Positions 6,808 to 54,912 are shown, counted from the stretch's first letter. The stretch is DNA of 64,000 nt from an uncultured Planctomycetaceae bacterium (GCA_963763045.1 CAVXNL010000019.1:29788-93787), one strand, 5' to 3'. Notes: a model not told the origin generated them from the sequence alone. Numbers and translations are program-made.

Positions 6808-7110
6808 GATGTTCCTCCCCGCTTGTCTACCGGCGAACCGGCTGCGTCCACGGCCGGGTTTGACACTCGCAGGTGAAGGTTCATTATGTCCGAGGGGAGG
6901 AAAAAGAGCAAAGGGGATTGGCGAGGGACCGGTCCAGTGCATGGTTAGCCCGACGCGCCAGCGAGGGTTGCTGCGGAAAACCCTCGCTGGCGCGTCGGGC
7001 TAACTCCGCGATGCCGTCGTGTGGCCGGGACTGAGGGACTCAGCCCCGGCCACCCCGAAGCCGTACACTACTTTTACGACCATCAATAAACACTACAAGG
7101 AGGTCCCGCC

Positions 7111-18466: not shown

Positions 18467-18518
18467 TACCCTCTCCCCCTCAGGGGGAGAGGGTAGGGTG
18501 AGGGGGGAATCCGAGGCG
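18467..18518. repeat. shorter G-rich perfect palindrome (related element C)
   Basis: CCCCCTCACCCTACCCTCTCCCCCTCA / TGAGGGGGAGAGGGTAGGGTGAGGGGGG. Confidence 0.7.
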
Positions 18519-21309
18519 GAGCGCCTGTTCGCGCTCGGCTGGCTGCATTGGCTCGACGGTGCTTTCGTCGAGGCCGAGTCTGCACTGGTCATGGCAGTCG
18601 AAATCTATCGGCAGGCGAACGCAACCCCGCAGCTCGCCGAAGCCGCGTACTGGTTGGCACGGGTGCGGATTCGCCTCGACCGGCAGGATGCGGTCAACGG
18701 CTTCGAGACACTTCTGCGCCAACTGGGCGGCTCTCCCCAGGCGACCGTGTGGTTTGTCGATCTGCTCTGGCGCACCGGCTGGGTGGGTCGAGCCGAACAA
18801 GTGTGGAAGGCGGTGCGCGGCAACAAGCGTGTCGCCGTCTGTCCCGATGGGCCGTTGCTGGAGGCGCGCTTGCTCTTGCAGCGCGGCGAGGTCGGCGGCG
18901 CCGTCAAAGTGCTCGTCGAAGTCCAGCCGGCGAACGGCGTACACTGGGTCGAGCGCCAGTTGTTGCTGGCGTGGGCCGAAGCCGCACAGGGCAGACGCGA
19001 CAAAGCGCTCGAATTGATGCGTCGTATCGAGGAGTTGCCGTATCCACGAGCCGCACTGGCGACCTGGCGCGCAGCGCTGGAAGGCGCGTTGCCGTCGCTC
19101 GCCGACGAATCCGAACCGCTCGTGCTGCGCGACCTGAAGCGCGGCTACCGAGAACTCACGGAAGGACGCACGATGGAGGCGGTCGAGGCGTTCCGCGCGG
19201 CACAGGGGCAGCAGTCGGCTCTGCCGTTCGCGCGCTTTGCTCTCGCGCGCCTGGGATACGATAGCTTCGCCGCTCTCCTGGCCGTTCAATCGGGGCTGTT
19301 CATCGCGGTGCGCTGCCGTGTCTGGCTCGCCCTGGAGCGATTCCGGCTGCGCCAGGGCAACCCGGCCGAATGGCTGGAAACGCTGCAACACGAGAGTCGC
19401 CTTGGCTTCATCGCCGGTCCGATCGTCGAACACTATCGCCGGCTCGCGCAGCTCCTGCGCCAACCGGCGGACAGCGAAGCGTTGTGCGACCTCGTTGAGC
19501 AACAGGAGCAGTTCGAGCCAAGCGTGTACCGCAACGTCGTTCGTGCGGCGCTGGAGGTTGTCCGCCGTCTGCCGAGTGAAGAGGCCAGAGAACTGATCGC
19601 GGCGTGGGGGAGATTGGAGTGGCTCACCGCGGAGGAAGAACTGCGTTGTTCCCTCCAGCGGCAGTCACTGCAGCTGACCCTTCGGGAGACGAACGCGGCC
19701 GACCTTTTGTCCGACGAACCGCTGCTGCAACCGGCGTCGCAGTTATGGCAAGCCGCGACGGAATTAAAGGACGACGACTCCTGGCGCGAGCAGGTTCGCG
19801 CTCTGCGATCCTCGCCCCGGTTGAGGCCGCTCACCCAGGCGCTGTTATTGCAGGAGGCTGCCCAACGCGGCGACGTGACGGGAGTCGTCGCGCTGCTGGA
19901 CGAGACGGACGTCTGGCGCGGTTTTCGGCCGGCGCCGCCGGTTTTTGTGCTGCGCACGGTTCAGAGCGTGGTGCATGGTCAGCCCTCAAACGCGGGCTTG
20001 CGCCGCTCTATCGCGCGCTGGTTGCAGATCTGGGACCTTGACGCTCTGGGCCAGCCTGGCTCCTCATTGGCCGCGCTCGTCGGGCTGCTGACCGTGCCTG
20101 CCAGCCGCGCGGAAGCACCTCCTGGGATACCCATTGTCCCGTGGCTCTTCCATCAGGCGGCGCGCACACTCGGCCACGAAGACTATATCGAGGCGCTCGC
20201 CTGCGTTCGCCGAGCGGAGGAGGTCGATCCGGAATGGGCGTCGGCGGCGAGCGCCGATCTCATGCGCACGGTGTTACCCGATCTGGAGAGGCGCGCAGTC
20301 GCGCAGTCCCTCGCCGCCGCGCTTCGGGAAACAGAATCGGAAGCGGTGGAATCCGGCCGATTGCTCACGGACGTCGTGGACCTGCTTCGCCAGCATCCCG
20401 ACGGCGCTGCCATCCTCAACGCAGCGGTGCGCGGCGACCGTGATGCCGTCCGCGAGGGTCTCGCTCTGCTTCTGAATCAAGCCGATTTGCCGCCGCGTCT
20501 CGCCCATCATCTGGCGCTGATCGAAATGCGGTCCGCTCTGGCGCTGGAGGACAGGGACAACACCGCAGCCGCTGAAGCGCACTGGCGGCGTGCGTGGACC
20601 GCGTGGCTTCGCTTGCTCGCAACGCCGCCGGGAGGAGAGGGTCTGCCTGTTCCCGACGCCGCCCGGATGGTTCTCGATACGCTGCTCGCCGATCATCGCC
20701 GGCGGATCAGCGGTCTGCTGGCCCGCAACGCCGTCGATGCGGCACGGCGGTACTGGGCGCTGGTTCAGGAGTTGCCCGCGCTGGCGGCGCTCCAATCGGC
20801 ACCACTGGGTCAAGACCTGGTGGTGCGAGTCGAACGATTCCGCGATGAGCTGGCGTCGGAATACCTGGTCATGACGCGCGAGTCGATGCGCTATGGCGAC
20901 GTGCCCGAAGGTTGCGCGCGCGGATTACGAAAAGGGTCTGTCGCACCTGCGGCGTCTTCTGAGCCTGGACCGCGACAACGTGCGGCTGCTGACAGCCCTG
21001 GTCGAGGTGTGCGGCGACTGGTTCCTCGACCTCTACAACGCGGAAGATCGCGATCGACTGACGGAACAGGTGACGCGGTTCGTTCCCTTCGCGCAGCAGC
21101 TGGTTCGTCTGACGGAGGGTCGGTCCGGCGAGTTGGCTGCGCGGGCAGCGCTGTCGGAATACTTCAAGTTCCGCGGGTTCGTCGCGCCGGATCACGCCGG
21201 GAAGGCGGCACTGTACCGCGAGGCGCTGCGGTTCAACCCGGCCAATGAGAATGTGCGTGAACTGCTGCAAGGACTCGGGGAAGGATCGGCCGCCGATGAA
21301 CCGGAGTGA
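18498..21309 (+). CDS. large alpha-helical repeat (TPR-like) hypothetical protein (~930 aa); frameshift near nt 20890; GTG start or a shifted earlier start
   Basis: Continuous 916-aa Leu/Ala/Arg-rich ORF of helical repeats with a signal of real coding. After a shift at ...ESMRYG the C-terminus continues in ORF 20893-21309 (ATCPKVARADYEKGLSHLRRLLSLDRDNVRLL...). It lies immediately downstream of the STPK. Confidence 0.5.
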
Positions 21310-28637: not shown

Positions 28638-29533
28638 TCACTCCGGATTCTCAGGCGAACCGTTGGCCTTAAGTTGCCGTGCCAGTGCTTCCAGGGTCTC
28701 TCGAGGTAGTGCGTGGGCGAGTTGTTCCACTGACAATCCCTTGAGGCGTTCCTCCGCAGGTAGACCCTTGAGGCGCTCCTCCGCGGGTAGACCTTCCATC
28801 CGCTCCGCGGGAGACAGTCGTTTGCGCAGTTCCTCCGCAGGCAGCCCCTTGAGCCGTTCCTCCGCAGACAAGCTCTTGAGGAGTTGGTCGATACTCTCGC
28901 GGACGTACTCTTTCAGTTTGTCGGACATGTCGGGTTCCTCGCTATAGACCCTGAGCAGATCGCGCAGCAACGTACTGGTTTCCTCCGAGCGCGACGGTAG
29001 TGCTCCTGGCCGTAGCGGAGCGATTCCACCCGCGCGCTGAATAGGAGGAGCATGGCATTCTGCTCCTCGAGCGGCAACTGATGCACCACGATGACGCGGA
29101 TGCACAGCGTCAGCACTCGCACTTCGTAGACGCCCGGTCGTATTGGCGTTAGCTCCACCTGCTGCGCGAGGTTTTGCGGATAGCGCACGCACACCGCATA
29201 CAGCCGATAGTCAGTCTCCGGCAGTAGGTCGTCCAGCGACGGACTGGACTGCTTCCGATAGTTGACGTAGTGGCCGATTAACTCCAAGAGCGCCCAGCAA
29301 TCGAGAGCCTCCTGGTGCGACTTGAAGGTCACCAGGTTATGCGGGGCCAGGTCCTCGAAGCCGTCAGGCAGCGGTCGCGGAATCGGCTCGGTCCCCCTGC
29401 GAATGAGGACGAGGTCGATAAACTGCTGCTTGAGCGACAGATCCATCTCCGGTTCCACACCGACGGCCGTGCCCCGGAAAAAGTCCATCCAGGACAGTCC
29501 GAACAGCCGGTGCAACGGTCTGGGTTCGCTCAT
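28638..29533 (-). CDS. PD-(D/E)XK nuclease-superfamily (Rpn/YhgA-like, DUF4351-type) protein with C-terminal tandem 9-aa repeats; frameshift near nt 28960 (tentative family call)
   Basis: ORF 28913-29533 (…HNLVTFKSHQEALDCWALLELIGHYVNYRKQ…) continues in ORF 28638-29192 after ...GQEHYRR into SEETSTLLRDLLRVYSEEPDMSDKLKEY..., then the repeats SAEERLKGLPAEELRKRLSPAERMEGLPAEERLKGLPAEERLKGL. Confidence 0.4.
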
Positions 29534-30256: not shown

Positions 30257-33200
30257 ATGCACCGCGAAATAAGCCACAGCGACCCGAACCACGACCAGGA
30301 CAGCCAACTGTCGCTCTACCTGCTGACAGCGCTTCTCGGCCTGCTGCTCGCCGCCGACCTGTGGCCGATGTTCGCCCGCTGGTTCAGCCCCTGGGGTCTG
30401 AAACTTCCCTCGTACAGTAATGAAGTGTACGGCAATCGGCTCGCCCTGTTCGCGGCTGTCCTCGGCGGCGCTCGCGCCTCTATGGTTCACTCGACGCTCT
30501 CTTCGCCGGCCGAGTGGGAGCCGACCTGGCACTGGCACTAGCGTGTGTCGCCGCCATCCTCCTCCGGGAGCAGCTCGTCGCCGCCGAGATCGTCTTCATC
30601 GGGATGCTCGGCGAATGCCTCGAAAGCGTCACGTTTGAACGCACTCAGCGGGCATTGCGGCGCTGGTCGAAATCTTCCCGCGCCGCTGCTGGCGGCTGCG
30701 CGATGGGCAAGAAGAGCGTGTGCTGACCACCGAATTGCAGGTTGGCGACAAGGTCGTGGTCAAGCCGGGCGGCCGCGTTCCGGTGGATGGCAGCGTGTTG
30801 GACGGCCGGTCGGCGGTGGACGTCAGCGCCCTGACCGGTGAGAGCCTACCGGTGGACAAGGGGCCGGGCGACGAGGTGCTGGCCGGCTCGCTCAACCAAT
30901 TCGGGGCACTCACCATCGAGGCGAAACGCGTTGCCGAGCAGACCGTCGCCGGCCGTGTGCTCGCACTGACGGCAAAGGCGCTCAAGGACAAGGCGCCGCT
31001 GGAACGCACCGCCGACCGGCTGGCCCGCTACTTCCTACCAGCTGTCCTCGGCCTCGCAGCGCTGACGTTCCTCGCCGGCATGATGATGTACGGCGGCAAC
31101 TGGTTTCGGCCGGCCAATTCGCAGAAACTGACGCTCGGCGAAGCGGCCCGGCACAGCGCCTATCCCGCGCTCTCGGTCCTGGTCGTCGCCTGTCCGTGCG
31201 CCTTGATCCTGGCGACGCCGGCCGCGGTCATCGCCGCGCTGGGACGCCTGGCGGGCACCGGTATTCTTATCAAGGGCGGCTCGGCCCTGGAGCGGCTCTC
31301 GTCGGTGAATGCCTTCGCCTTCGACAAGACCGGCACCCTCACCGAAGGCCGGCTCGAAATCGGCGACTTGGCTCCCCTTCCCGGCGTCGAGGCCGACGAC
31401 GTGCTGCGCGCCGCCGCGACCGCCGAGCAGCGCAGCGAGCATCTCCTGGCCCGGCTCGTGCTGCAAGAGGCGGCGCGGCGTAATCTGCACCTGGAAGAGG
31501 TCGCGGAGTTCAAGGCGCACCCCGGCGCCGGTGTCGAAGTAAAGACGCCATTGGGGATCGTCATTGTCGGAAATAGGCGCCTGCTGGAGGAGCAGGGCAT
31601 CACGCTCCCGGCTGAGGTCGCAGCGCTGCTGGAGCGCTTCGACGCTACTGGCCAGACGGCGCTGCTGGTGGTACGGGATGGAATCGTCCTCGGCGCGATC
31701 GGCGTGCGCGATCACCTGCGGGTGGAGGCCGCCGAGGTCCTGGCACAACTGCGCGGCCTCGGTATCCAACGTATCGCCCTGCTGACGGGCGATCGGCCGG
31801 CTGCCGCGGCAGGGGTGGCCGCCGCACTCGGTACTTCTTCTCCACTCCCCGCGCTCGGAGCGCCGCCGGAACAGGCCATCACGCAGGCACCGGCCGACGG
31901 GGGCGGGTCGCTATTAACCGAAGTGCGCGCCGAGTTACTGCCGCAGCAGAAGGCGGAGTTCGTCGCCGACTGGCAGCGCCAGGGACTGCGCGTGGCCATG
32001 GTTGGCGACGGCATCAACGATGCCCCAGCCCTTGCTCGGGCCGATGTCGGTCTCGCGCTGGCTGCGGCCGGTACCGACGTGGCTGCCGAGGCGGGTGACA
32101 TCGTCTTCATGAAGGACCCGCTGCAATCGCTGCCGCTCCTGCTCCGCCTGTCGCGCGAAACGGTCCGCATCATCCGCCAGAACATCATCGTCTTCGCCTT
32201 CGGCGTCAACATCGTCGGCGTGGTGCTGACCGCCTGGCTGTGGCCGATCTTCGCGCCGCCGGACTGGTACGAACAGTCGCCGGTGGTCGCCGTGATCTAT
32301 CACCAGCTCGGTTCGCTGGCGGTGCTGCTCAACGCCATGCGACTGTTGTGGTTCGAGCGGGCCGTCACCAACCCGACCTACGTCCGCTGGCGCGAGCGCC
32401 TGGACCATGTGAACGACTGGTTGGAACGCATCAGCGTCGATGACGCGGCTCACTGGCTGAGCCACCACTGGCGCGACGTGACGACGGTGCTGCTCGGTCT
32501 GGCCTTTGCCTGTTACACCCTGAGCGGCCTCACGCAGGTCAACGCCGACGAGGTGGCGCTCGTGCGCCGTTTCGGCAAACCGTTGCCCGTTAAACTCCGG
32601 TCCGGCCTGCACTGGTGCTGGCCGTGGCCCATCGACGCCGTCACGAAGGTGCAGCCCGACCGCATTCAGACCATCGAGATCGGTTTCCGCACGGTCGGTA
32701 AGGAGCAGGCACCGACCGCACGCGTCTGGTCCAGCACCCACAGCGGCGACGGCATCCGCCGCCTTCCCGACGAGGCCGTGATGATTACCGGCGACGGCCA
32801 GCTGATCGAGCTGCAAGGCTCGATCCGGTTCCACATCGCCGACCCGCACGTCTTCCTGTTCGAGGTCGAGGACGCGCCGTCGCTGCTGCGCGGCGCCGCC
32901 GAGGCAGTGCTGCGTGAGAAGGCGGCGGCGCGGACCTTCGACCGGCTGTTGACCGTGGACCGCGAATCGTTCCAGCAGGAAGTGTTGGAGCGACTGCGAG
33001 AACGCTGTACGGATTACGGATTGCACGGTCTCGGCGTTCACCTCGACGGCGTGTCGCTGCACGACCTGCACCCGCCGCAGGATGTCGTCGCCTCGTACCA
33101 TAGCGTGACGAAGGCGATGGAGAAGCGCGACGAGGCGGTCAACATGGCCAGGGAGGAGGCCGTGCGAAAAGAGAACGCCGAGTTGGGGAAGATGCGCAGG

Positions 33201-33607
33201 ACATTCGCCTCGCCACCGCTGAGCATGATGGCCGGCTGCGTCTCGTCCGCGCTCAGCGCGATGCCCTGCTCGCGCGCCTGAACGCACGCACGGGCCCATC
33301 GGCGGTAGGTGTGGCGATGCTTGGCGGCAGCGTCTTCTTCCGCGCCGGCCAGGAGGAGGTCGCCGGCATGACGGGGCGAGCCAATTTCCGCCTCTATTGG
33401 GAGGCCGTGGTGGACACGCTGAAGGACCGCCAAAAGATCCTGCTCGACGCCGACAAAATGCCGGAGCTGAGCAGTTTATGGCTGATGCGGCTGCTGCCGT
33501 TCGATTCGCTGCGCATGCCGTTCTCGACACGGCCGCCGGTGCTTCCGCCGGAAGCTGCCGTGAGACGAAAAGGGAGGCTCATTCCATGCGTAAGCTCTTC
33601 TGGCTGA
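30257..33607 (+). CDS. P1B-type heavy-metal-translocating ATPase (CPC motif, no N-terminal HMA domain) fused in frame to an HflK-like SPFH/band-7 domain; frameshifts near 30530, 30670 and 33195
   Basis: TM N-terminus (ORF 30257-30541), the actuator TGESLPVDK, CPCALILATP, DKTGTLTEG, MVGDGINDAPALARADVGLAL and the final TM ...LAVLLNAMRLL. The same uninterrupted 853-aa ORF then runs, with no stop, into a TM (VTTVLLGLAFACYTLSGL) and an SPFH domain (VNADEVALVRRFGKP...HWCWPWPIDAV...GVHLDGVSLHDLHPPQDVVASYHSV). The HflK C-terminus (RLYWEAVVDTLKDRQKILLDADKMPELSSLWLMRLLPFD) ends at 33607. Confidence 0.7.
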
Positions 33608-34552
33608 CCCTGCTCCTCGTCGGCGGAACGCTGCTGGCGTCGTCGTGCCTGTACTCGGTAGATCGCATCGACTTCGTCTATCTGACGCAGTTCGGCCGGC
33701 ACGTCGCCACGTTCGATGGGACGCGCGACGCCGATGCCGGGCTGCACGTCAAGTGGCCGTGGCCCATTCAGTCGGTGCAGCGCCTCGACCGGCGGCTGCA
33801 ATACTTCGACCTGCCCGGCGCCGAGTTGATGACCCGCGACCGCGATCGCAACACCATCGACAAGACGCTGACCATCGACGCCTACGTCTGCTGGCGCATC
33901 GCCGACGGCGAGGGCGTGGATCAGTTCGTCCGCACCGTCGGCACGGCAGAGAGTGCGCGGGCCATCCTTACGCAGCGGCTCGGCAGCGAGCTCGGCGCGC
34001 TGATCGGCGCCCGCGAGATGAATGACCTGGTCAGCACCGACCGGCTCGGCGGGAAGGTAGATGCGCGAGCGCGAACAAGCTCCGCGAGGAGCTGCTGAGC
34101 CGCGTGAAGCAGGTCCGGGAAGAGGCTGGTATTGAGGTGGTGGACGTGCGGCTGCGGCGCATCAATCATCCCGATTCGGTGCGCAAGGAGATCTTCGAGC
34201 GCATCCGCAGCGAGCGCGCGAAGATGGCCGCCGAGTACGAAAGCGACGGCAGGCGACAGGCCGCGGACATCCTGAGCAAGAGCGAGCAGCGCGATCGGAG
34301 AACCTCCGGACGCGGGCCAAGGCAGAGGCCGTGCGGCTGCGCGGCGACGCCGATGCGCGAGCCGACCGGATCCGCGGCGAAGCGCAGAAGCAGGATCCCG
34401 ACTTCTACGCCTTCCTCAAGAAGCTCGAGGCCTACAAGAGCATCTTCGGCGACAACAAGACCTTGTTGCTGCTCTCCACGCATCGAGAGATGTTCGACCT
34501 GTTCAACAATCCGCCGGGAATGAAGCCGGCGCCAAAACCGGGAGAGAAGTGA
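33586..34552 (+). CDS. hflC: HflC-like SPFH-domain membrane protease modulator; frameshifts near 34060 and 34320
   Basis: MRKLFWLTLLLVGGTLLASS (TM), HVKWPWPIQSVQRLDRRLQYFD, TIDAYVCWRI, then after shifts EIFERIRSERAKMAAEYESDG and RLRGDADARADRIRGEAQKQDPDFYAFLKKLEAYKSIFGDNKTLLLLS. The start overlaps the hflK-like stop. Confidence 0.75.
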
Positions 34553-34700
34553 TTTATCGATTTGCGCGTCCAGCGCGAATCGATAAATCGAGAACTTGGA
34601 ACTGCGAAACCGGCATTGCACCGTCGCAGGCGCCGCCGTTATACTCCTCCTCCAGTCGCGGCAATTCCGCCGGCGGCCGGCGTCCAGGGGAAGGAGCCTG

Positions 34701-35771
34701 ATGGACACGCAATCCGTCTTGCCATGTCTTGTTGCGCCCTCACCGCGCTCTGCCGTGCTGTCGCGCCGCAGGACCCAAACGCCGCGGCTTTCCGTCGTCG
34801 TGGTCAACTATCACCACTGGCACGAAACCGCTTCGTTGCTGCGCCAGCTGCGGGCCTCGCCGGCCCTGCGCCGCGGCGACGCCGAGGTCATTGTGGTGGA
34901 TAACAACTCGCCGCGCCATCCGCTGTTGAACCGCTTGCGGCGCCTGCCCGGCGTATCGGTGCGGCGCTGGCGGCGCAACCGCGGCTTCGCCTGTGCCGTC
35001 AACGAGGGCTGCCGTCTGGCCCGCGGCGACTGGTTGCTGCTGCTCAATCCTGACGTCACCCTCGCGCCGGGTTTTCTCGCCCAGGCGCTGCGGACCGTGG
35101 AGCGCCGGCTCCTCGAAGAGCCGGACCTGGGCGTCGTCGGTTTCCGTCTTCTGAACCCGGACGGCACTCGGCAGCCGTCCACCGGGCCGTTTCCGACGCT
35201 GACCGGCTCCGTGGCCCGTCTGCTGCTGCCGCGCTGGCTGCGCAAGTACAACCTTTTCTCGTTGGACGAAGCCGGTCCCGTGGACTGGGCGACAGGCTGT
35301 TGCCTGCTCGTGCGACGGGCGTGCTGGGAACAACTGGGCGGTTTCGACCGTGACTTCTTCCTCTACTACGAAGACGTGGACCTCTGCCGCCGCGCCCGCA
35401 CTGCCGGCTGGACAGTGGCGTTCGAGCCGTCGGTCAGCGTTATCCACCATCACCCGCTACACGGCCGGGACATTCCGCCCTATCTGCGCCTGGTCACCCG
35501 CCACGCTCTGCTCACCTATGCCCGCAAACACTGGCCGAGTTGGCAAGTCCGCGTGCTCGCCGGCCTCGTCGCCACGGAAGCAAAGGTGCGCGCCTTCAGC
35601 GCCCGCCGGCAGGGAGATGATCGGGCCGCCGACGTCTTCGCCGAACTCGGGCAACTCACCACCGATCTCGTCCAGGGCGACAAGGTTGCCGCCGAACGAC
35701 GCTTGCTGCGCGTCGTGTACCGGGAGGAGAAGGAGCGTGGCAGCGTTCTCGATCGTCGTTCCAAGCCATAG
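34701..35771 (+). CDS. family 2 glycosyltransferase
   Basis: LSVVVVNYHHWHETASLL...VIVVDNNSP...NRGFACAVNEG...LLLNPDV...GGFDRDFFLYYEDVDLCRRA is a GT2 signature (DxD, ED motifs). Confidence 0.8.
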   Translation: MDTQSVLPCLVAPSPRSAVLSRRRTQTPRLSVVVVNYHHWHETASLLRQLRASPALRRGDAEVIVVDNNSPRHPLLNRLRRLPGVSVRRWRRNRGFACAVNEGCRLARGDWLLLLNPDVTLAPGFLAQALRTVERRLLEEPDLGVVGFRLLNPDGTRQPSTGPFPTLTGSVARLLLPRWLRKYNLFSLDEAGPVDWATGCCLLVRRACWEQLGGFDRDFFLYYEDVDLCRRARTAGWTVAFEPSVSVIHHHPLHGRDIPPYLRLVTRHALLTYARKHWPSWQVRVLAGLVATEAKVRAFSARRQGDDRAADVFAELGQLTTDLVQGDKVAAERRLLRVVYREEKERGSVLDRRSKP

Positions 35772-46175: not shown

Positions 46176-47670
46176 TCACGAGCCGCCGAACAGTTTCAGC
46201 AACTCGCCCAACTCCGTCGTGAGCGGATCCGAACCGGTGGGGGTAGTAGTCTTACGAAACTCGGCCGGACTCTCGAACCCCGGAGGATAGGCCAGTAACT
46301 CGTACACCTTCGCAAACTGTTTCTTCACGTCGTCGCTTTTCACGGCGCCGGGATTCGCCTGGTAGAGCGCCGTCAGACCGTAGACCATTTGCGTCGCCTC
46401 ATCCCAACTGAGCGCTGCGAGTTTCTTTGCATCGACGGCGGCGAGGTCCTTCGTCAGCTTGCCGACCTGTTCCTTGCTCAGGCTCTTACTGCTAAGCGAC
46501 CCCAATTTTTCCAGCGTCGCCTCGACCAGTTTGGCTACTTCTTTTCGATCGGGAGACGGCTTGCTCATCAGCCGGGCCAGCGCGGCGAAATCGGGTGCAT
46601 CGGCTCCCAGACTCTTTGCCAGTGTCGGCAGTCCTGTCGAGAACCACTCGTTGTAAGGCAGCCCACCGGGAACACGCTCCTTGATGTCGCGATAACCGGG
46701 CCGGTACCGGAAATCGCTGTGTGACTCCCGTAAGCTGGCGTGGCAGGCGAAACAGTTGTACTCGGCGAACTCGGGCCAGGGTTTCTGCTCGTCCTTGGCG
46801 CGAAAAGCCAGCAGATCGAGAGACGCCCGGGCCGACTCGGTGCGTCCCGCCGCCCACAGTTTCGCCTCGTAATCGGCCGGATACTTGTCGCGGCGCCAGT
46901 GGGCCGGTAAGTTCGCCTGGAACGTGCTCAACTCGAAGACCAGGCGCGGGTGGCCGGCGGCCATCAGGTCGTGGTTCAGATCGCGGGCCGGCACACCGTT
47001 CTTCGGATCGGCAGGGCGCCGACGTGACAACCGGCACAGACCCGCGCCTGCTCCCGCGGATCGCTCATCATCTTCATGCCCTGCTTGTCGTTGCTCGCCT
47101 TCCACCCTTTCAGTGTGTGCGCCGTCAGCCAGCCCGCCGCTCTCGGGGGCGAGTCCGTGGCAGGCTTCGCAGCCGATGCCTTCGGCTTGCAGCGCCCGCA
47201 TTTTGGCACCGTTCCCGACAGCGAACTCCGGCGTCGTGTGGCAGGCGAGACATTTCGGATCTTCGTAGGCGTTTATTTTCTTGCCGCCGTTCAGCGGGGC
47301 GAGGTTCTGGGCGATGCGATCGGCACGCGGCTCGTGCAGTACCTCGTAAGGCGCGGGTGTGCGGGTCGTGGCGCACCCAAGTCGTGAACTCGTTCTGCTG
47401 CACCCCGTCCTTGTTCGCCGTGAGGGCGCCGTGGCAGCCGCGGCCTGCGCAAGACCCACTGCCGGCGAGACCGTGACCGCGTGCGATAAGCGCAAGGATG
47501 TCCGGGTCCTCACTGACTTCAGCTTTCATATTCATGACGACGGCGCCGGCGTTTGCTCCTTCCGGTGCAGGGGAACGGGCCGAGTTGGCTGTACTCACCA
47601 GCGGATAGATCAGGACGGCGGGCAGCAAGCAGACGGCGAGAGCGGCCGACCTTCGGAGATTGTTCTGCAT
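46176..47670 (-). CDS. multiheme c-type cytochrome (secreted); frameshifts near 47130-47360
   Basis: Signal peptide MQNNLRRSAALAVCLLPAVLIYPLVSTANSA. CxxCH motifs CLACH, CEACH and CFACH lie in ORF 46176-47513, with a further GCHG-type site upstream. Confidence 0.75.
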
Positions 47671-48037
47671 GGGGAGCCTCGGCACCGGAGATGCGAGCCA
47701 GATAGACTTGAGGGAAACGATACCGTCCGCGGGTGTGGTTGGCAACGCCATCCCGCCCGTCGAAGATTATTTTCCGAAAGTTGGTGAATCGAGTCGGCAG
47801 ATCGTTGACAGTCATCCGCGCGAGTGATAGATTTGCCCCCGTTCCTTGGCGTTCGCCAAATACTGCGTGAAGCGGCTCTCCTAACTCTTAGGGGATGCCG
47901 TAGCGGCGAGGCGCTCTCGACCAGTCAGGTATCGGCGGTGCGCTGCGCGGAGGTTGCACAGTATTCCCCTCGGGCATGGGAGTCCCTTGTTGTGCTGATC
48001 GATCGCTCGACTTTATCCCAGCACTTGCCGTGGGTCG

Positions 48038-48958
48038 TTGCCAGCGTCGCTGCTGGCTGCGCTCGCCAGTGTCTGGTACTTCGTCGCCAGCGCCAGTGTC
48101 GCAACCTGGCCGGGGGGCAGTAGCTTCCCCGGGTTCACCTTCGGCGTTCTCGGCGGTCTGATCTGCCTGTTCGAGTTCCTGCTCTGGCCGCGCAAGAAGT
48201 TCCGCGCCTGGCGTATCGGCCGGACGCAACACTGGATGCGGGCGCACATCTGGCTCGGACTGCTCGCCGTGCCGCTGCTGATCTATCACAGCGGCTTCCG
48301 CTGGGGCGGTTCGCTCAGCACCATCCTTATGGTGCTGTTCCTTGTGGTGATCGCCAGCGGCGTCTGGGGCCTGGTATTGCAGCAGTTCCTTCCCAGCAAG
48401 ATGCTCATGGAAGTCCCGGCCGAGACGATCTATTCGCAGATCCCGCGTATCTCCGGCATCATGGCGATGGAAGCCGAACGCCTCGTCCTGGCGACCTGCG
48501 GCGGCGAAGGCAACGTGACGCCGACAGATCAAGAAGAAATCGGCGATGTCGGCGTCGCACACATGGTGATCGGCAAGGTGCGGCATGTCGGCGGCGTCCA
48601 GGGCGTGGTGCTCGAAACGTTGGCGCCATCGCAGCCGATCACAAACACCGAGTTCCTCGCCAACGCCTTCCGCGACACCATCCGCAATTACCTGATGCAG
48701 GGGGCCAAATCCGGCTCGATTCTGGCCACGGCGCCGCGGGCCGTCGACTATTTCCGCACCGTCCGCGAGCGGATCAACCCGGATGCGCTTTCGGTCGTCT
48801 CCCACCTCGAAGGGTTGTGCGACCAGCGCCGCCAGTTCGACGCCCAGGAGCGGATGCACTTCTGGCTGCACAACTGGCTGTTCGTGCATCTGCCGCTATC
48901 GGTGGCCCTGATTCTGTTGATGTTCGTGCATGTGTACGTGACGCTTAAATACTGGTGA
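48038..48958 (+). CDS. integral membrane protein (4-6 TM) of unknown function, between the two cytochrome c genes; possibly a b-type-haem or quinone-interacting partner
   Basis: Hydrophobic segments LAALASVWYFVASASV, VLGGLICLFEFLLW, IWLGLLAVPLLIYH, TILMVLFLVVIASGVWGLVL, LFVHLPLSVALILLMFVHVYV, plus conserved His/Trp. Confidence 0.45.
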   Translation: MPASLLAALASVWYFVASASVATWPGGSSFPGFTFGVLGGLICLFEFLLWPRKKFRAWRIGRTQHWMRAHIWLGLLAVPLLIYHSGFRWGGSLSTILMVLFLVVIASGVWGLVLQQFLPSKMLMEVPAETIYSQIPRISGIMAMEAERLVLATCGGEGNVTPTDQEEIGDVGVAHMVIGKVRHVGGVQGVVLETLAPSQPITNTEFLANAFRDTIRNYLMQGAKSGSILATAPRAVDYFRTVRERINPDALSVVSHLEGLCDQRRQFDAQERMHFWLHNWLFVHLPLSVALILLMFVHVYVTLKYW

Positions 48959-49047
48959 TGTGATGGACACGACGAATAGGTCCTCTCGGGCCTATAAGTC
49001 CTATTCGGCTCCAGCCACAAACCCCCGGCCCCCTTGGAAACGAGCAT

Positions 49048-50545
49048 GGCTAACCAGACCCCAGGCGGCTGCGCCGCTCCAAACCGGTAAGGGACGAGCG
49101 ACTCGGATTCCGCTCGACTACTACAAGACCGCCAACCCTCTGGAAAAAGGCAAACTCGTGCTGGCGGGAGTCGCCGTCCTCGGCACCTGCGTCTGGCTGG
49201 CCCTGGGGTTCGCCACGTCGGACGGCGGCCAGTCGCGCTACTCTCGCGGCCAGGTAGCCAAGGTTCACGAGAAGTGGAACAACGACTGCCAGGCGTGTCA
49301 CGTTCCCTTTTCGCCGATCAGCGAGCAGAGCTTGTTCATGAGCCATCCGTCGCCGGCGGACAAGAACTGTCAGGATTGCCACGCCAAGAACAACCGTGCA
49401 ACCGGCGACCATTACGTAGGCCGCGAACCGGCGTCGAACCAACTCAGGAGTTGTGCAGGCTGTCACCGCGACCATCACGGCGCGGAGGCCGATTACTCGC
49501 TCGTCCGCCTGGCTGACGCCGATTGCGCCTCGTGCCACAAGGACCTGAAGAACCACTACGGTTCGGGTAAGCCCATCGTGTTCGCCAACGACGTCACGTC
49601 GTTCGCCAAACACCCCGAGTTCGGTGCTTATTCGAAGGGGGTGAAAGATCCCGGCAAACTGAAGTTCAACCATAAGCTGCACATGCAGCCCGGCCAGGTT
49701 CCGGCTGACGGCATCGGTGCCTACACCCTCGACAAGATCAAGACGCTCGACCGCGGCGCGATGAGCGCTTCAAGGACGCGGCCTGGCAGACGGACAAAGC
49801 GGACACGGCGGCCGTCCAGCTCGATTGCGCCGCGTGTCACGTGCCGACGAAACCGGTTGAACAGGGGGCCTCCACGGCGACGGCGGGCCGTTACATGCAG
49901 CCGATCAAGTACGACGCCCATTGCAAGGCGTGCCATCCGCTGACGTTCGACACCGACAAGGAAGCTCTACCGCATGGTCAACCACTGGCCAAAATCGACA
50001 TCTTGCTCGAAGCGGCGTACAAGGACTACAAGCCCTCGCCGGCCAAGCCGAGTTCACGGCCGCTGCTCTCGAAACCACTCGCCAGCCCCGAACAGATGCG
50101 GACAACTGCGGATCTCGTCAAGGAAGCAAAGCGGTACATCGAGGGAACCCGGGCGGGTTGCGTCGAATGCCACTTCATCGAGGTCCGAGAAGGTAAAAAA
50201 GAGATCGAACCGGTGCATGTTCCGGAGGTGTGGTTCAAACATGCCAAATTCAGTCATCTTGCCCACCCGTCGACGGTAGCCAAGTGCATTGACTGTCACG
50301 GGAAGGCCAAAGAATCCACCGATCATGCCGACGTGCTGATTCCTGACCTCAAGAGCTGCCAGACCTGTCACGCGCCGGAAAAGTCGGAGGGCGGTAGAAA
50401 GATTGGCGGCGCCCGCCATGACTGCACGGCCTGCCATGTGTTCCATCACAATGAGCAGGTGAAACCCGGTGTCGTCGGGCTGGACGCCGATCCGCGGACC
50501 GCGCTGGAGTGGCGCTTGTTGCTGCCGAGTAAATCGAGGAAGTGA
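49048..50545 (+). CDS. membrane-anchored deca-haem c-type cytochrome; frameshifts near 49070 and 49800
   Basis: An N-terminal TM anchor (LVLAGVAVLGTCVWLALGFA), then CxxCH sites: CQACH, CQDCH, CAGCH, CASCH, CAACH, CKACH, CVECH, CIDCH, CQTCH, CTACH. Confidence 0.75.
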
Positions 50546-51090: not shown

Positions 51091-52444
51091 TGCGCACCGC
51101 CCTGAAGAAGGAGCCGCTGCCGCACGAACACGTCGATTCCGCTCCGCTCGGCTGGAAGATCGATCCCTACAAGGGCAAGCCGCAATACGACGCGCTGAAG
51201 CAATACATCGCCGAGAACAAGAACGCTCTCGCGCTCATCAAGAAGCTGGAAGTGTCCAGCCTCCGCGGCATGGGCGGCGCCGGCTTCCCGACGTTCCGCA
51301 AGTGGTCGGCGGTGCGCGGCGCCCCGGCGACGAAAAGTACGTCGTCTGCAACGCCGACGAGAGCGAGCCGGGCACGTTCAAGGATCGCGAGCTGCTGCGG
51401 CGGACGCCGTGGCTGGTCATCGAGGGCATGATCCTGGCCGGCCTCGTCGTCGGGGCCAAGCAGGGCTGGATCTACATCCGCCACGAGTATCCCGACGAGG
51501 AACGAGGCCGTCGAGAAGGCGCTGCACGAGGCCCGCGAGATGGGCGTCCTGCGGCGACAACGTCCTCGGCTCCGGGCATGCCGTTCCAGCTCGAAATCTT
51601 CATCAGTCCCGGCGGCTATGTCCAGGGCGAAGAAAGCGCGCTGCTGGAGGCGATGGAGGATCGCCGCGGCGAGCCGCGCAACAAGCCGCCGTTTCCGGTG
51701 TTCAACGGCCTGTACAACAAGCCGACCGTCATCAACAACGTCGAGACGCTGAGCTGGGTGCCGGGCATCGTGCTGAACGGCGGCGAATGGTATCGCGAAC
51801 CAGGGCATCAACGGCGAACCCGGCATGCGCTTCTGTCTCGGTCAGCGGCGACGTGGTCAAGCCGGGCGTCTACGAGGTGCCGTTCGGCCTGAAGGTGCGG
51901 GAGCTGATCTTCGAACCGGAATACTGCGGCGGCATGCGGCCGGGACGCAGGTTCAAGGCGATCGCGCCGTCCGGGCCGTCCGGCGGCTTCTTGCCGGCGA
52001 TGATCAAGCTGACCAATCTGCCGCCGAAGTTCGTGCAGGACCGCCTCAATAAGCGAAGACGTTGCCTTCGCCTTTCTCGACTTGCCGCTCGGCCTGAACA
52101 CGTTCGACGAGTTCGGCGGCATGCTCGGAGCCGCTCTCATCGTCTACGACGACACGCCGCGACATCGTCGAGAACGCGCTCAATTGCGTCGAGTTCTACC
52201 GCAACGAGTCGTGCGGCAAGTGCGTCCCCTGCCGGACCGGCTCGCAGAAGCTGGTCGAGCTGATCGGCCAGATGATGGACCAGCAAGTTCCCGCGCGACC
52301 CAGCTGCCGCTGGTCGGCGAGCTGGCCGACACGATGTGTATCGCGTCGATCTGCGGCCTGGGCCAGGTGGCATCGAACCCGATCGCCTCGGTGCTGAAGC
52401 ACTTCCCCGAGGAGCTGGATAAGTATATGCGCAACGGCGCGTGA
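51089..52444 (+). CDS. NuoF/HoxF-like NAD(H)- and FMN-binding [4Fe-4S] flavoprotein subunit; at least 4 frameshifts
   Basis: SSLRGMGGAGFPTFRKW, YVVCNADESEPGTFKDRELL, GAKQGWIYIRHEYP, QGEESALLEAMEDRRGEPRNKPPFP, TVINNVETLSWVP, VSVSGDVVKPGVYEVPFG, NESCGKCVPCRTG. The ATG overlaps the NuoE-like stop (TGATG). Confidence 0.8.
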
Positions 52445-52447
52445 ACT

Positions 52448-52511
52448 CGTTTAGCCGCGAGCTGTTTGCGAGCGCTGAGCCTCGGCGCTCGCAAAAGCTC
52501 GCGGCTAAACG
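52448..52511. repeat. perfect 64-nt palindromic stem-loop in the 92-nt gap between the nuoF-like stop and the next gene's ATG
   Basis: CGTTTAGCCGCGAGCTGTTTGCGAGCGC...GCGCTCGCAAAAGCTCGCGGCTAAACG, nested inverted repeats. Confidence 0.8.
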
Positions 52512-52536
52512 AAAGACCTCATTGTCGAGACTTCTC

Positions 52537-54912
52537 ATGAGTCCTGCTGACAATAACGAACCGCTGGTCATGGAAGGCCATTATGTCGAGCTGGAAAAGA
52601 CCGTCGTCGATCTGCTCAAGGAGCCGCCGGTCAAGGTCACCATCGACGGCAAATCCATCGAGATCCCGCGCACCACGCTCGTCGAGAACCCGGTGACCGG
52701 CAAGGTCGAGCCGAAGCCGACGACCATCTACGACGCCGCCCTCAAGCTCGACATCAAGATCCCGATCCTGTGCCACCGCGAGCACATGACCCCCGTCGCC
52801 GCCTGCCGTTTCTGCACCGTCGATGCCGGCGGCCGGGTGCTGACGGCCGCCTGTCACCGGCAGGTCGAGCCGAACATGGTCGTCCACACCGGCAACGCCG
52901 ACACGCCGCAGGGCAAGCGCGTCCGGAACACGATCAAGGTGCTGACCGAGCTGCTGCTCGCCGATCACGAAGTGCCGCGCGAGGCACATAAGGAGTACGG
53001 CGACAACGAGCTGCGCACCATCGCCAAGAACCTCGGCCTCAATCCGTACTCCTCGCGCTTCCCCAAGTCCGGGCGCGACCGCGGTCAGACGAGTCGTCGC
53101 TCGTCATCGCCGTCGATCACAACGCCTGCATCCTGTGCGACCGCTGCATCCGCGGCTGCAACGAAGTGCGCAACAACCAGGTCCTGGGCCGGATGGGCAA
53201 GGGGTACAAGGCGCACATCGCCTTCGACCTCAACGACCCGATGGGCCAATCGAGCTGCGTCTCGTGCGGCGAGTGCATGATCTCCTGCCCGACCGGGGCA
53301 CTGACGAATCGGAAGTTCGTCGGCGCCGATCCGTGGGCCGCCGTGCGCAGACAAGGTTCAGTCGGTCAATCCCGCGGACCTCTACAAGAACCCGCTGTTC
53401 GAGGGCGTATCGCGCCAGTTCCTCGAGTTCAACAAGGGCTCCGTGGTCCGGCGCACGTTCAAGACCGGCGACATCATCTGCCGCGAAGGCACGGCCGGCT
53501 CGACTGCGTTCCTCATCGAAAAGGGCAAGGTGGAGATCCGCATCACGTCGCCGATCAAGCACGCCAAGGCGCAGAAGATCGGCGTCCGCGGCATCTTCCG
53601 CAAGTTTGCCAGTGCCCTCGTCGGCCGCGGCGAGGACTCGCGCGATGAGGAGAGCCGGTCGTCGTTCATCCACATCGACGGCCCCGTGTCGCTGAAGTAC
53701 TCCGATCCCGTCGCCGAGCTGGACGAAGACGACCTGATCTTCGGCGAAATGACGTGCATGAACAACTACCCGCGGTCGGCAACGGTCGTGGCCAAGACCG
53801 ATGTGACCGTGCTGGAAGTGCTGCGCAACGTCCTCTACATCTTGCAGCGCAACAAGAAGTCGAAGGCGAAGCTCGACGCCGTCTACCGCCGGCGCTCGAT
53901 CGACAACCATCTCCGTAGCGTGCCGATCTTCGCCGACCTGCAACAGGATGAGACGCAGTTCAAGCGCTTCATCGACTTCTTCCGCGAGCGTGTCCAGCTG
54001 GTGCGGCTGGCACCGGGTGAGACGATCTTCCGCCAGGGCGACAGGGCCGACGCCTTCTTCATGGTGCGCGTCGGCTTCGTGAAGGTGTCGCAGAATCAGT
54101 CAGGCGGCGAGCAGGTGCTGGCTTACATCGGCCCCGGCGGCTATTTCGGCGAGATCGGTCTGATGGCCGACGACGCCGACGTAAGCCGGCTGGCCCCCGC
54201 CGGCGTCCGCACCGCAACCTGCACGGCCCTGGACCACGTGGACATTGTGCGCATGAAGGCGTCGGACTTCCGCCAGATCCTGACGGACTTCCCAGCCGTC
54301 GCCGACAAGATCAAGTCGCGGGCGATCGAGATCCTGAAGAAAAACGAGGCGACCCGCGAGCGCGTGCAGAAGGTGCCGCTCGGCGAGTTCGTTCGCCAGG
54401 GCTTGCAGGAGGCGACGTATCTGCTGGTGCTCGACCTGGAGAAATGCACGCGCTGCGACGAATGCACCAAGGCCTGTGCCGACACCCACGATGGCGTGAC
54501 ACGGCTGATCCGCGAGGGTTTGCGGTTCGACAACTACCTGGTGGCGTCGTCGTGCCGGTCGTGTCTCGATCCGTACTGCATGGTCGGCTGCCCGGTCGGC
54601 TCGATCCGCCGCCGCCAGTCGCGCGAGATCATCATCGAGGACTGGTGCATCGGCTGCGGCAAGTGCGCCGAGAATTGCCCTTACGGCAACATCAACATGC
54701 ACCCGTTCCCGACGAACCAGCTGATGGACGATCCGAACAAGCCAGGCTTCAAAGTGCCGGTGGTGCAGCAAAAGGCGACGCTGTGCGACCAGTGCAGCGA
54801 GCTGGACGGCCAGCCGAGCTGCGTCTACGCCTGCCCGCACGACGCGGCGCATCGCATGTCGGGCAAGCAGCTGATCGGGATCGTGGAGAAGCGGGCGGCG
54901 GCGATGAAGTGA
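52537..54912 (+). CDS. multidomain redox/sensor protein: NuoG/HydA-N-terminal-like ferredoxin module ([2Fe-2S] + His-ligated and 2x [4Fe-4S]) + two cyclic-nucleotide-binding (CAP) domains + C-terminal poly-ferredoxin (4x CxxCxxCxxxCP); frameshifts near 53090 and 53350
   Basis: VKVTIDGKSIEIP...ILCHREHMTPVAACRFCTV...TIKVLTELLLADH, then after a shift NACILCDRCIRGCNEVRNNQVLGRMGKGYKAHIAF...SCVSCGECMISCPTGAL. CAP domain 1 follows (LYKNPLFEGVSRQFLEFNKGSVVRRTFKTGDIICREGTAGSTAFLIEKGKVEI), then CAP domain 2 (VRLAPGETIFRQGDRADAFFMVRVGFVKVS...YIGPGGYFGEIGL). The C-terminus has CTRCDECTKAC, CRSCLDPYCMVGCP, CIGCGKCAENCP, CDQCSELDGQPSCVYACP. Confidence 0.7.

Follow-up and report, generated by a model that had tools for sequence, protein, structure and literature searches.

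A P1B-type metal ATPase fused to an HflK-like SPFH domain: a conserved gene module and its possible role in metal export

In Escherichia coli, the paralogous SPFH proteins HflK and HflC are encoded side by side and occur with the protease FtsH; an N-in transmembrane (TM) helix leads to a periplasmic SPFH domain, a coiled coil and a closure segment (7VHP, 7WI3, 9CZ1; PMC12048511). The gene described here lies at 30257-33607 of a 64,000-nucleotide stretch of DNA from an uncultured Planctomycetaceae bacterium (GCA_963763045.1 CAVXNL010000019.1:29788-93787), referred to as the window. It encodes the same succession of elements and is likewise followed by the gene of an HflC paralogue, but in it a metal pump has an HflK-like chain as its C-terminal third. 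The system differs further in having two HflK-like paralogues and one HflC-like gene, an insertion of ~26 amino acids (aa) with a W-x3-H motif in the SPFH domain, and a score below the cut-off of the HflK model.

For the pump, the closest described relatives are the P1B-4 ATPases (sCoaT 7QBZ, CzcP, CtpD/CtpJ) and the CPC-bearing, P1B-6-like CtpC. They share with it the eight-TM P1B fold, the lack of an HMA-type N terminus and a His motif in TM6, where HQLGS corresponds residue for residue to HEGST. In contrast to these enzymes, the present protein has CPC and not SPC or SCA in TM4, Gln in place of Glu or Asn in TM6, and, beyond the ATPase part, a linker followed by a TM helix and an SPFH domain. 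An extra C-terminal domain has a precedent in the P1B-5 ATPases, which carry a hemerythrin-like domain. That domain is soluble and cytoplasmic, whereas here the additional TM helix would send the scaffold domain to the periplasm. In function, the nearest precedent is PacL of Mycobacterium tuberculosis. PacL proteins are small membrane scaffolds encoded with P1B ATPases and are needed for pump stability and clustering in "effluxosomes", platforms that are mobile in the membrane and confer Zn/Cd resistance (PMC13460109; Boudehen et al. 2022, PMC9374683). PacL is not an SPFH protein, is a separate polypeptide and acts on the cytoplasmic side through the metal-binding domain of the pump; the scaffold considered here is an HflK homologue, covalently joined to the pump and probably periplasmic.

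The fusion gene and its conservation

The sequence-only reading of the window had proposed that a metal ATPase of the CPC type continues in frame, within a single 853-aa open reading frame (ORF), from its actuator domain into an HflK-like SPFH domain, that the HflK C terminus and an overlapping hflC follow, and that the arrangement is unfamiliar from characterised systems. These proposals are borne out. Multiple ORFs in differing frames lie on the + strand between 30257 and 34552, and the largest, 30720-33281, is one uninterrupted ORF of 853 aa. Its Pfam domains are E1-E2_ATPase (residues 3-178, 156 bits), Hydrolase (HAD; 197-442, 96 bits) and Band_7/SPFH (606-814, 86 bits), all with scores far above the gathering scores; for Band_7 (PF01145), 85.8 bits against a gathering score of 23.6 place the protein in the SPFH/Band 7 superfamily. 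The CPC motif is at 31191-31199. From LLWFER (32343-32360), where ATPase TM6 ends, to the extra TM helix (32478-32531), the frame is kept without a stop. The HflK-like C terminus (33200-33607) is found in another frame, and the HflC-like gene (33586-34552) overlaps it. The earlier reading did not state the start of the gene at 30257, five frameshifts in the window copy or the absence of the third gene of the module. The parts of the gene are as follows.

30257-33607, + strand: complete fusion gene (P1B-type ATPase, cytoplasmic linker, ninth TM helix, HflK-like SPFH domain), 1117 aa after repair of three single-base deletions
30257-32360, + strand: ATPase portion without an N-terminal HMA domain, N terminus MHREISH, helices MA, MB and M1-M6 (from Pfam, motifs, and AF2 and Foldseek of an orthologue)
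32361-32477, + strand: Arg-rich cytoplasmic linker from TM6 to the extra TM helix, with HWLSH; in frame and stop-free
32478-32531, + strand: ninth TM helix VTTVLLGLAFACYTLSGL, which would lead the chain from cytoplasm to periplasm; counterpart of the single N-terminal TM helix of HflK
32532-33607, + strand: HflK-like SPFH domain, long coiled-coil helix and C-terminal closure segment (from Pfam Band_7, TIGR01933 and PDB matches)

A protein search with the 853-aa ORF covered 5.8 billion proteins. Besides the ORF itself, almost all matches are ~1070-1140 aa long and contain the same three Pfam domains; three are shorter and probably partial. At least 120 clusters have PF00122, PF00702 and PF01145 in one protein of ~1070-1130 aa. 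The closest match among those listed is P0002 (1068 aa, 83% identical), an intact orthologue encoded at locus L002, which covers the fusion gene by tblastn in frames 2, 1, 3 and 2; P0026 (locus L005) is likewise intact. The genomes were also scanned, one per species, with the junction and SPFH part as query, and 215 species genomes encode a relative of it. The best 80 of these 215 are nearly all Gemmataceae, Gemmatales or Planctomycetota metagenome-assembled genomes (MAGs). Of the 69 loci in which the 5' end is covered, 59 encode ATPase and SPFH domain together in a single ORF of 950 codons or more without a stop. The carriers are hundreds of soil and freshwater bacteria, and conservation in related Planctomycetota, which the sequence-only reading had left to be checked, is thus evident from the Gemmatales loci. 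Beyond them, more distant fusions of ~1000 aa occur in Acidobacteriota (Blastocatellia, Bryobacterales). One Acidobacterial fusion is collinear with P0002, linker, extra TM helix and SPFH domain included (37% identity in 1030 columns), which indicates a single origin of the ATPase-SPFH join.

Indel problems do exist nearby in the window, and an error that removed a stop could have merged a separate ATPase gene with hflK. The linker (WFER...NDWLE...HWLSH) and the extra TM helix, however, align in frame in at least 65 orthologues. The 69 loci come from independent assemblies, mostly of short reads, and the join recurs in another phylum. A stop codon with a ribosome-binding site between NAMRLL and the SPFH TM helix, as expected of two ordinary genes, is excluded by the single ORF in 59 of 69 genomes. 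An artefactual origin of the fusion is therefore regarded as refuted.

No description of an ATPase-SPFH or CDF-SPFH fusion was found in full-text searches, which is not proof as most subscription journals lie outside their coverage; a 2009 survey of prokaryotic SPFH proteins makes no mention of such a fusion. The parts belong to well-known families; their combination is, as far as found, undescribed. Database names depend on the annotation pipeline (P0003-P0120, P0274-P0385, P0398-P0498), and none spans both halves of the protein: 'Cu+-exporting ATPase', 'HflK protein', 'membrane protease subunit HflK', 'FtsH protease activity modulator HflK' and 'cadmium-translocating P-type ATPase'. Some matches to the window ORF are named just 'cation-translocating P-type ATPase family protein [Gemmataceae bacterium]' or 'Cu+-exporting ATPase', and the NCBI names of the Acidobacterial fusions are 'FtsH protease activity modulator HflK' or 'cadmium-translocating P-type ATPase'.

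A three-gene module and a second class of exporter

The SPFH part of the fusion is found on a second kind of metal exporter. The junction and SPFH segment of the window was scored against 1.84 billion cluster representatives, and the best 150 were classed by local phmmer. ATPase sequence is present in 74 of them, 37 at full length, and 58 are SPFH-only, many of them apparent fragments from short contigs. A further 16 are CDF-SPFH fusions (Cation_efflux PF01545) of ~570-660 aa. Such fusions form at least 120 clusters and occur in other phyla, including Candidatus Eisenbacteria, Hydrogenedentota and Desulfobacteraceae. Named 'FtsH protease activity modulator HflK' and likewise uncharacterised, they have the same SPFH clade, W-x3-H loop, downstream genes and predicted topology as the ATPase fusions. 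They differ in the exporter, a secondary-active CDF transporter that is not ATP-driven. The HxxxD motif is present in both TM2 and TM5 of 119 of 120 CDF parts, and HxxxD/HxxxD is the Zn-type site in CDF transporters. One SPFH module is thus attached to two unrelated metal exporters, both of which end in the cytoplasm as an N-in HflK requires. This double attachment is the strongest argument that the role of the scaffold is metal export.

The ATPase fusion is usually the first of three genes. It is followed by B1 (HflC-like, ~320 aa) and then B2 (a second HflK-like protein, ~310 aa), both Band_7 proteins, and this was so in every intact neighbourhood first inspected. Among loci with enough downstream sequence, B1 and B2 are both present in 59 of 65 and both missing in six, and B1 never occurs alone. 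A Band_7 gene pair also lies downstream of the CDF-SPFH fusion in three of three loci inspected. In pairwise scores between ATPase and CDF modules, the B1 proteins behave as orthologues (145-184 bits), the best match of either fused domain in the other module is its fused counterpart (125-161 bits), and B2 is a paralogue of the fused domain. B1 of L002 scores 178.6 bits on the hflC model TIGR01932, above the cut-off of 134.4. On the hflK equivalog model TIGR01933, with a cut-off of 159.4, B2 scores 122.2 bits and the fused SPFH domain 141.6 (P0026) and 134.3 bits (P0002); since these lie below the cut-off, the fused domain and B2 are called HflK-like, not HflK.

In the window, the region downstream of the fusion is as follows.

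33586-34552, + strand: B1, HflC-like SPFH gene, 322 aa after repair (tblastn with the L002 B1 in frames 1, 3 and 2)
34553-34595, no strand: expected place of B2, B2 absent; the ORF of a family-2 glycosyltransferase (GT2), 34596-35771, follows

Window B1 overlaps the end of the fusion gene by 22 nucleotides (nt); after repair it is stop-free and 76% identical to the B1 of L002. The GT2 ORF, assigned by Pfam, starts 44 nt after it. The B2 proteins of L001, L002 and L003 find in the window only the SPFH domain of the fusion itself. Of the full module, the window contains the fusion, its WSSTH motif and B1, lacks B2, and carries frameshifts in both genes.

No ftsH gene (AAA with Peptidase_M41) is present among the long ORFs of the window or beside six inspected loci; ftsH is unlinked to hflKC in E. 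coli too. Among 80 loci, no fourth partner gene is conserved beside the module, and no metalloprotein or chaperone gene either. The largest additional cluster is the gene of a conserved multi-TM protein directly 3' of B2 in 14 of 80 loci (e.g., L019:9395-10771); at L002 and on the P0004 contig, a zf-dskA_traR protein and signal peptidase II (Peptidase_A8) are found downstream instead. At L038:7341-9290, in a MAG of the MFD series, B1 and B2 form one stop-free ORF of 650 codons, either a B1-B2 fusion or an assembly error.

The pump, the linker and the fused SPFH domain

The following motifs were located in the window ORF.

30834-30845, + strand: TGES (actuator)
31191-31199, + strand: CPC in TM4
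31323-31337, + strand: DKTGT (phosphorylated Asp)
32004-32027, + strand: GDGINDAP (hinge)
32175-32210, + strand: TM5 QNI...GVN motif
32298-32315, + strand: TM6 YHQLGS motif

All three catalytic motifs of P-type ATPases, DKTGT, TGES and GDGINDAP, are present. CPC and DKTGT are retained in 120 of the 120 top matches of the window ORF search (119 Gemmatales fusions and the ORF itself) and in all 112 Acidobacterial proteins, and the fusion pumps look active. TIGR models were scored on the orthologues P0026 and P0002, as the frameshifts kept the window copy from being scored whole. On NCBIfam TIGR01525 (ATPase-IB_hvy, cut-off 346) they reach 558 and 523 bits, respectively, as P1B ATPases do. A model of P0002 was built with AlphaFold2 (AF2) from 65 orthologues (mean pLDDT 77.6). 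It has a disordered N terminus without an HMA domain and then the core of eight TM helices (MA, MB, M1-M6) that goes with CPx in TM4, together with actuator and P/N domains. A linker with two short helices (residues 697-722), the ninth TM helix (725-754), an alpha/beta SPFH domain (756-935) and a helix of ~70 residues (938-1008) make up the rest. Foldseek matched the model to LpCopA, ZntA and sCoaT, with target-normalised TM-scores of 0.67-0.71. In sequence alignments, only sCoaT (7QBZ, P1B-4) could be followed through TM6.

The metal carried by the pump was considered from the residues of TM4 to TM6. P1B-1 ATPases (Cu+/Ag+, CopA type) are defined by YN in TM5 and MxxSS in TM6, and P1B-2 ATPases (Zn/Cd/Pb, ZntA type) by CPC with Lys in TM5 and Asp in TM6 (DxG). 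The fusion pumps have FAFGVN in TM5 and YHQLGS in TM6, unlike P1B-1, and score just under the cut-off of 397 on the copper model TIGR01511 (394.5 bits for P0026, 359.2 for P0002). The Cd/Zn family model TIGR01512 gives 431 (P0026) and 399 bits (P0002) against a cut-off of 313.5. The CPC of P1B-2 is present, but HQLGS stands at the place of the ZntA Asp motif in TM6, and the HMMER alignment to ZntA ends before TM6. The P1B-4 definition asks for SPC in TM4 and HEGxT in TM6. TM4 has CPC instead, and SPC is found in none of the 112 Acidobacterial and 120 window-ORF matches, while HQLGS aligns to HEGST of sCoaT 7QBZ with His and S/T in common and Gln for Glu. The Acidobacterial fusions have N-x20-H-Q-x-S, apparently close to the P1B-6 hallmark N-x18-H-N-x-(S/T) given for the Zn exporter CtpC (PMC13460109). 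The motif set of the fusion pumps fits none of the seven named P1B subclasses as given in PMC13460109; by its motifs, the ATPase resembles the P1B-4 class without falling within its definition.

Because TM5 and TM6 lack the Cu(I) signatures, TIGR01512 is exceeded, TM6 resembles that of sCoaT and the CDF partners have HxxxD sites, the pump most likely exports a divalent metal (Zn/Co/Cd/Fe type) and not Cu(I). The name 'Cu+-exporting ATPase' given by JGI is probably wrong as to the metal. Rfam gave no matches in the window between 28500 and 35000 with E up to 1, and hence no metal-naming riboswitch (NiCo, Mn); at the gathering score, nine related loci gave nothing except one tRNA.

The N terminus MHREISH(A/T)D is near-invariant in the Gemmatales fusions (P0002-P0120; 30257-30277 in the window), and the Acidobacterial N termini differ (e.g., MIIFQHIS). 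In the linker, HWLSH (32451-32465) places two His at i and i+4 just before the ninth TM helix; among 65 orthologues, H730 is invariant and H734 nearly so. The motif HW(L/V/I)(S/G)H occurs in 90 of 119 Gemmatales and two of 112 Acidobacterial fusions. The MHREISH N terminus and the HWLSH linker could be cytoplasmic metal-sensing sites. P1B ATPases have a cytoplasmic C terminus. Because of this established topology and because the linker is rich in Arg, the ninth helix is expected to place the SPFH domain in the periplasm, as in HflK.

The resemblance to HflK extends over the whole C-terminal part. For the C-terminal 370 residues, the sole sequence matches in the PDB are E. coli HflK chains (7VHP, 7WI3, 9CZ1, 9CZ2, 7VHQ, 9PAW; best E = 1e-17), from the TM-proximal segment through the C-terminal closure segment. 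The region of the ninth TM helix aligns to HflK residues 80-141, and a further alignment, including RLY...KV(L/I)V, covers 138-354. TM helix, SPFH domain, coiled coil, closure segment and an adjoining hflC-like gene, the architecture of HflK, are all present, and the secondary structure of the AF2 model agrees. The fused SPFH domains form a clade of their own, marked by the ~26-aa insertion with W-x3-H (WSSTH at 32727-32741 in the window) that E. coli HflK, B1 and B2 lack. The motif is present in 115 of 119 Gemmatales, 79 of 112 Acidobacterial and 114 of 120 CDF fusions; the 12 B1/B2 proteins all lack it.

Two stretches of the fused domain vary in the window. At 33291-33362, in the coiled-coil/C-terminal region, there is a 72-nt insertion relative to L002; P0004 has a still longer insert at this place, so the length of the stretch varies among close relatives. 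At ~33480-33510, a near-invariant P-x-R-R-x-LW reads PELSSLW, with both Arg replaced; the Arg pair is invariant in eight orthologues and nearly so in 65. A counterpart of HflK Arg191 (PMC12048511) as an FtsH contact was considered and dropped, because the numbering is ambiguous relative to the alignment and the nearby Arg is a general SPFH residue.

Proposed role of the scaffold and condition of the window copy

The locus is, on balance, best read as a conserved module in which an HflK/C-type ring scaffolds metal-efflux pumps, most likely for a divalent metal. The ninth TM helix would put the SPFH domain in the periplasm in the topology of E. coli HflK, both types of transporter ending in the cytoplasm. 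There the fused domain may join the HflC-like subunit and the free HflK-like one in a ring or dome of the HflK/C type. Pumps tethered in this way to a scaffolded membrane patch would have a metal-efflux platform built in, by which they are stabilised, clustered or regulated, and the free HflK paralogue could dilute the bulky pump-bearing subunits and let the ring close. The sequence-only reading had suggested, as one possibility, that an SPFH ring organises metal-efflux microdomains. This gains indirect support from the fusion of the same SPFH module to CDF exporters.

Several observations weigh against the scaffold reading. We estimate that twelve ATPases around a 24-mer ring may be sterically difficult. 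The pump may work alone, as six of 65 loci have no B1 or B2 nearby. The hflK scores of the fused domain (134-142 bits) and of B2 are below the cut-off, and the metal assignment is based on motifs. The clustered frameshifts and the missing B2 of the window copy, weighed below, would fit a genuine loss of the module by this organism.

How such a scaffold would act can be read in three ways. A ring dedicated to metal exporters (P1B ATPase or CDF) and independent of FtsH, in effect a built-in "effluxosome", comes close to an even chance; the scaffold, possibly with the W-x3-H loop, would then be needed for pump stability, clustering or metal hand-off. That the HflK-like domain instead recruits the pump into an FtsH-HflK/C complex, where FtsH would degrade or regulate it, e.g., after metal stress, was the leading idea of the sequence-only reading and is unlikely in our judgement. 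The sole solved relative of the fused domain is indeed an FtsH modulator, E. coli HflK, B1 scores above the cut-off of the HflC model, and native HflK/C assemblies promote the degradation of some membrane proteins by FtsH (PMC12048511). Such coupling, however, finds no ftsH at the places inspected, and the separate clade of the fused domains, with its W-x3-H insertion, also sets them apart from E. coli HflK. A covalent, stoichiometric tether to a protease adaptor would be an odd control of turnover, and the attachment to two unrelated metal exporters points to a role in metal handling and not in general quality control.

A periplasmic chamber for metal handling, in which the dome encloses the exit of the pump and the W-x3-H loop receives the metal for metalation or for a hand-off that prevents re-entry, is less likely still. 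It would account for the presence of W-x3-H in most members of all three fusion classes and its absence from B1 and B2, and SPFH proteins are known to form domed enclosures (PMC12624060, PMC12048511). Yet one His and one Trp are no recognisable metal site, the loop is of low confidence in the AF2 model (pLDDT < 50 at residues 815-826), and SPFH cages are not known to be ion-tight. Nor is a partner metalloprotein or chaperone gene conserved beside the module.

The condition of the window copy is a separate matter, compatible with any function of the family. Three frameshifts were placed in the fusion gene.

30476-30477, + strand: frameshift 1, one base missing, frame 2 to frame 1, at GCGC
30659-30660, + strand: frameshift 2, one base missing, frame 1 to frame 0, at GCGC
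33199-33200, + strand: frameshift 3, one base missing, frame 0 to frame 2, with a false stop at 33281 (from alignment to P0002 and its DNA)

Frameshifts 4 and 5, both -1, are in B1 at ~34073 and ~34291. As a result, the first ~155 codons of the fusion are in two other frames (shifts at ~30476 and ~30659), and its C-terminal part is cut off by the shift at ~33199. Insertion of one N at 30476, 30659 and 33199 opens a frame of 1117 codons with no internal stops. In the repaired fusion, two of 212 family-invariant positions are changed; intact orthologues have a mean of 1.25 and a maximum of six. The repaired copy thus appears to be under full purifying constraint, and for this reason we think it probable, with some reserve, that the deletions are errors of the assembly consensus and not real mutations.

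The opposite view, that the window module is a recently inactivated pseudogene cluster in which the deletions are real and B2 has been lost, is a serious contender at somewhat less than even chance. It draws on the concentration of the damage: five shifts fall within 4.3 kb, whereas other genes of the window that match domains at full length, 10 kb or more in total, have none, and by our own calculation the Poisson probability of no events in 10.2 kb at the operon rate is ~1e-5. B2 is also absent here, while none of 65 other loci has B1 without B2. The lack of nonsense codons after repair and the two altered invariant residues speak against decay, as does the uniformity of the lesions. Each of the five is a -1 shift no more than 2 nt from a GCGC motif, although only 12.7% of operon positions are that close to one, and this looks like a systematic error. 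Broken copies are, moreover, concentrated in MAGs of the MFD series, which we take to be long-read assemblies (eight of 10 broken orthologous loci), and other genes of the window may be split as well (a PQQ_2 domain gene; 28638-29533).

The association with GCGC could come from methylation of the motif, with base calls that are systematically wrong there, or could mark a mutational hot spot. Shifts in the remaining broken MAG loci are a mixture of +1 and -1, and the junction windows are too wide to inform on direction or on a link to GCGC. A frame plot of GC content at third codon positions (GC3) was too weak for frameshift mapping in a window of ~63% GC. A codon-usage tracker recovered the five operon shifts and was too noisy elsewhere in the window for counting. 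By blastx of the window against ~1 Mb of related loci, a handful of common genes were found, all intact, which is a limited control.

Directly upstream of the fusion, the overlapping ORFs 28913-29533 and 28638-29192 (- strand) are in different frames and look like halves of one gene with a possible frameshift; the second half contains ERLKGLPAEE repeats, and neither ORF has a Pfam match. A PQQ_2 beta-propeller is split on the - strand (4558-6053) between ORF 5070-6053 (profile positions 3-98) and ORF 4558-5313 (69-151) in different frames, and four overlapping ORFs across 3569-6942 may be one broken gene. Elsewhere in the window, the stretches 46176-50545 and 51409-54912 contain a cluster of multi-haem cytochrome c ORFs (Cytochrome_C7, C554, paired CXXCH), after which come ORFs matching SLBB and 2Fe-2S (Fer2_4) domains and a protein with cyclic-nucleotide-binding domains and 4Fe-4S clusters; several of these ORFs change frame repeatedly over short distances. 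The longest ORF of the window, 18498-21248 (+ strand, 916 aa), has no Pfam match at E up to 0.001.

For experiments, the window copy is a poor starting point and intact orthologues such as P0002 and P0026 are better. Public names describe half of the protein each, with a copper assignment that is probably wrong. What SPFH/HflK-type cages do to the membrane proteins they enclose is a long-standing question, and their clients are usually unknown or disputed (PMC12005517, PMC12048511). In these modules the scaffold is joined covalently to its client, one of two unrelated metal exporters, and the arrangement has been kept in hundreds of species of several phyla. If the reading of a dedicated ring independent of FtsH is true, they would represent a functional class of SPFH assembly new among bacteria, and the effects of SPFH cages on enclosed proteins could be studied in them as a tractable model. 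The idea of a scaffolded metal-efflux platform, so far represented only by mycobacterial PacL-Ctp, would be extended to a different and widespread family of scaffolds.

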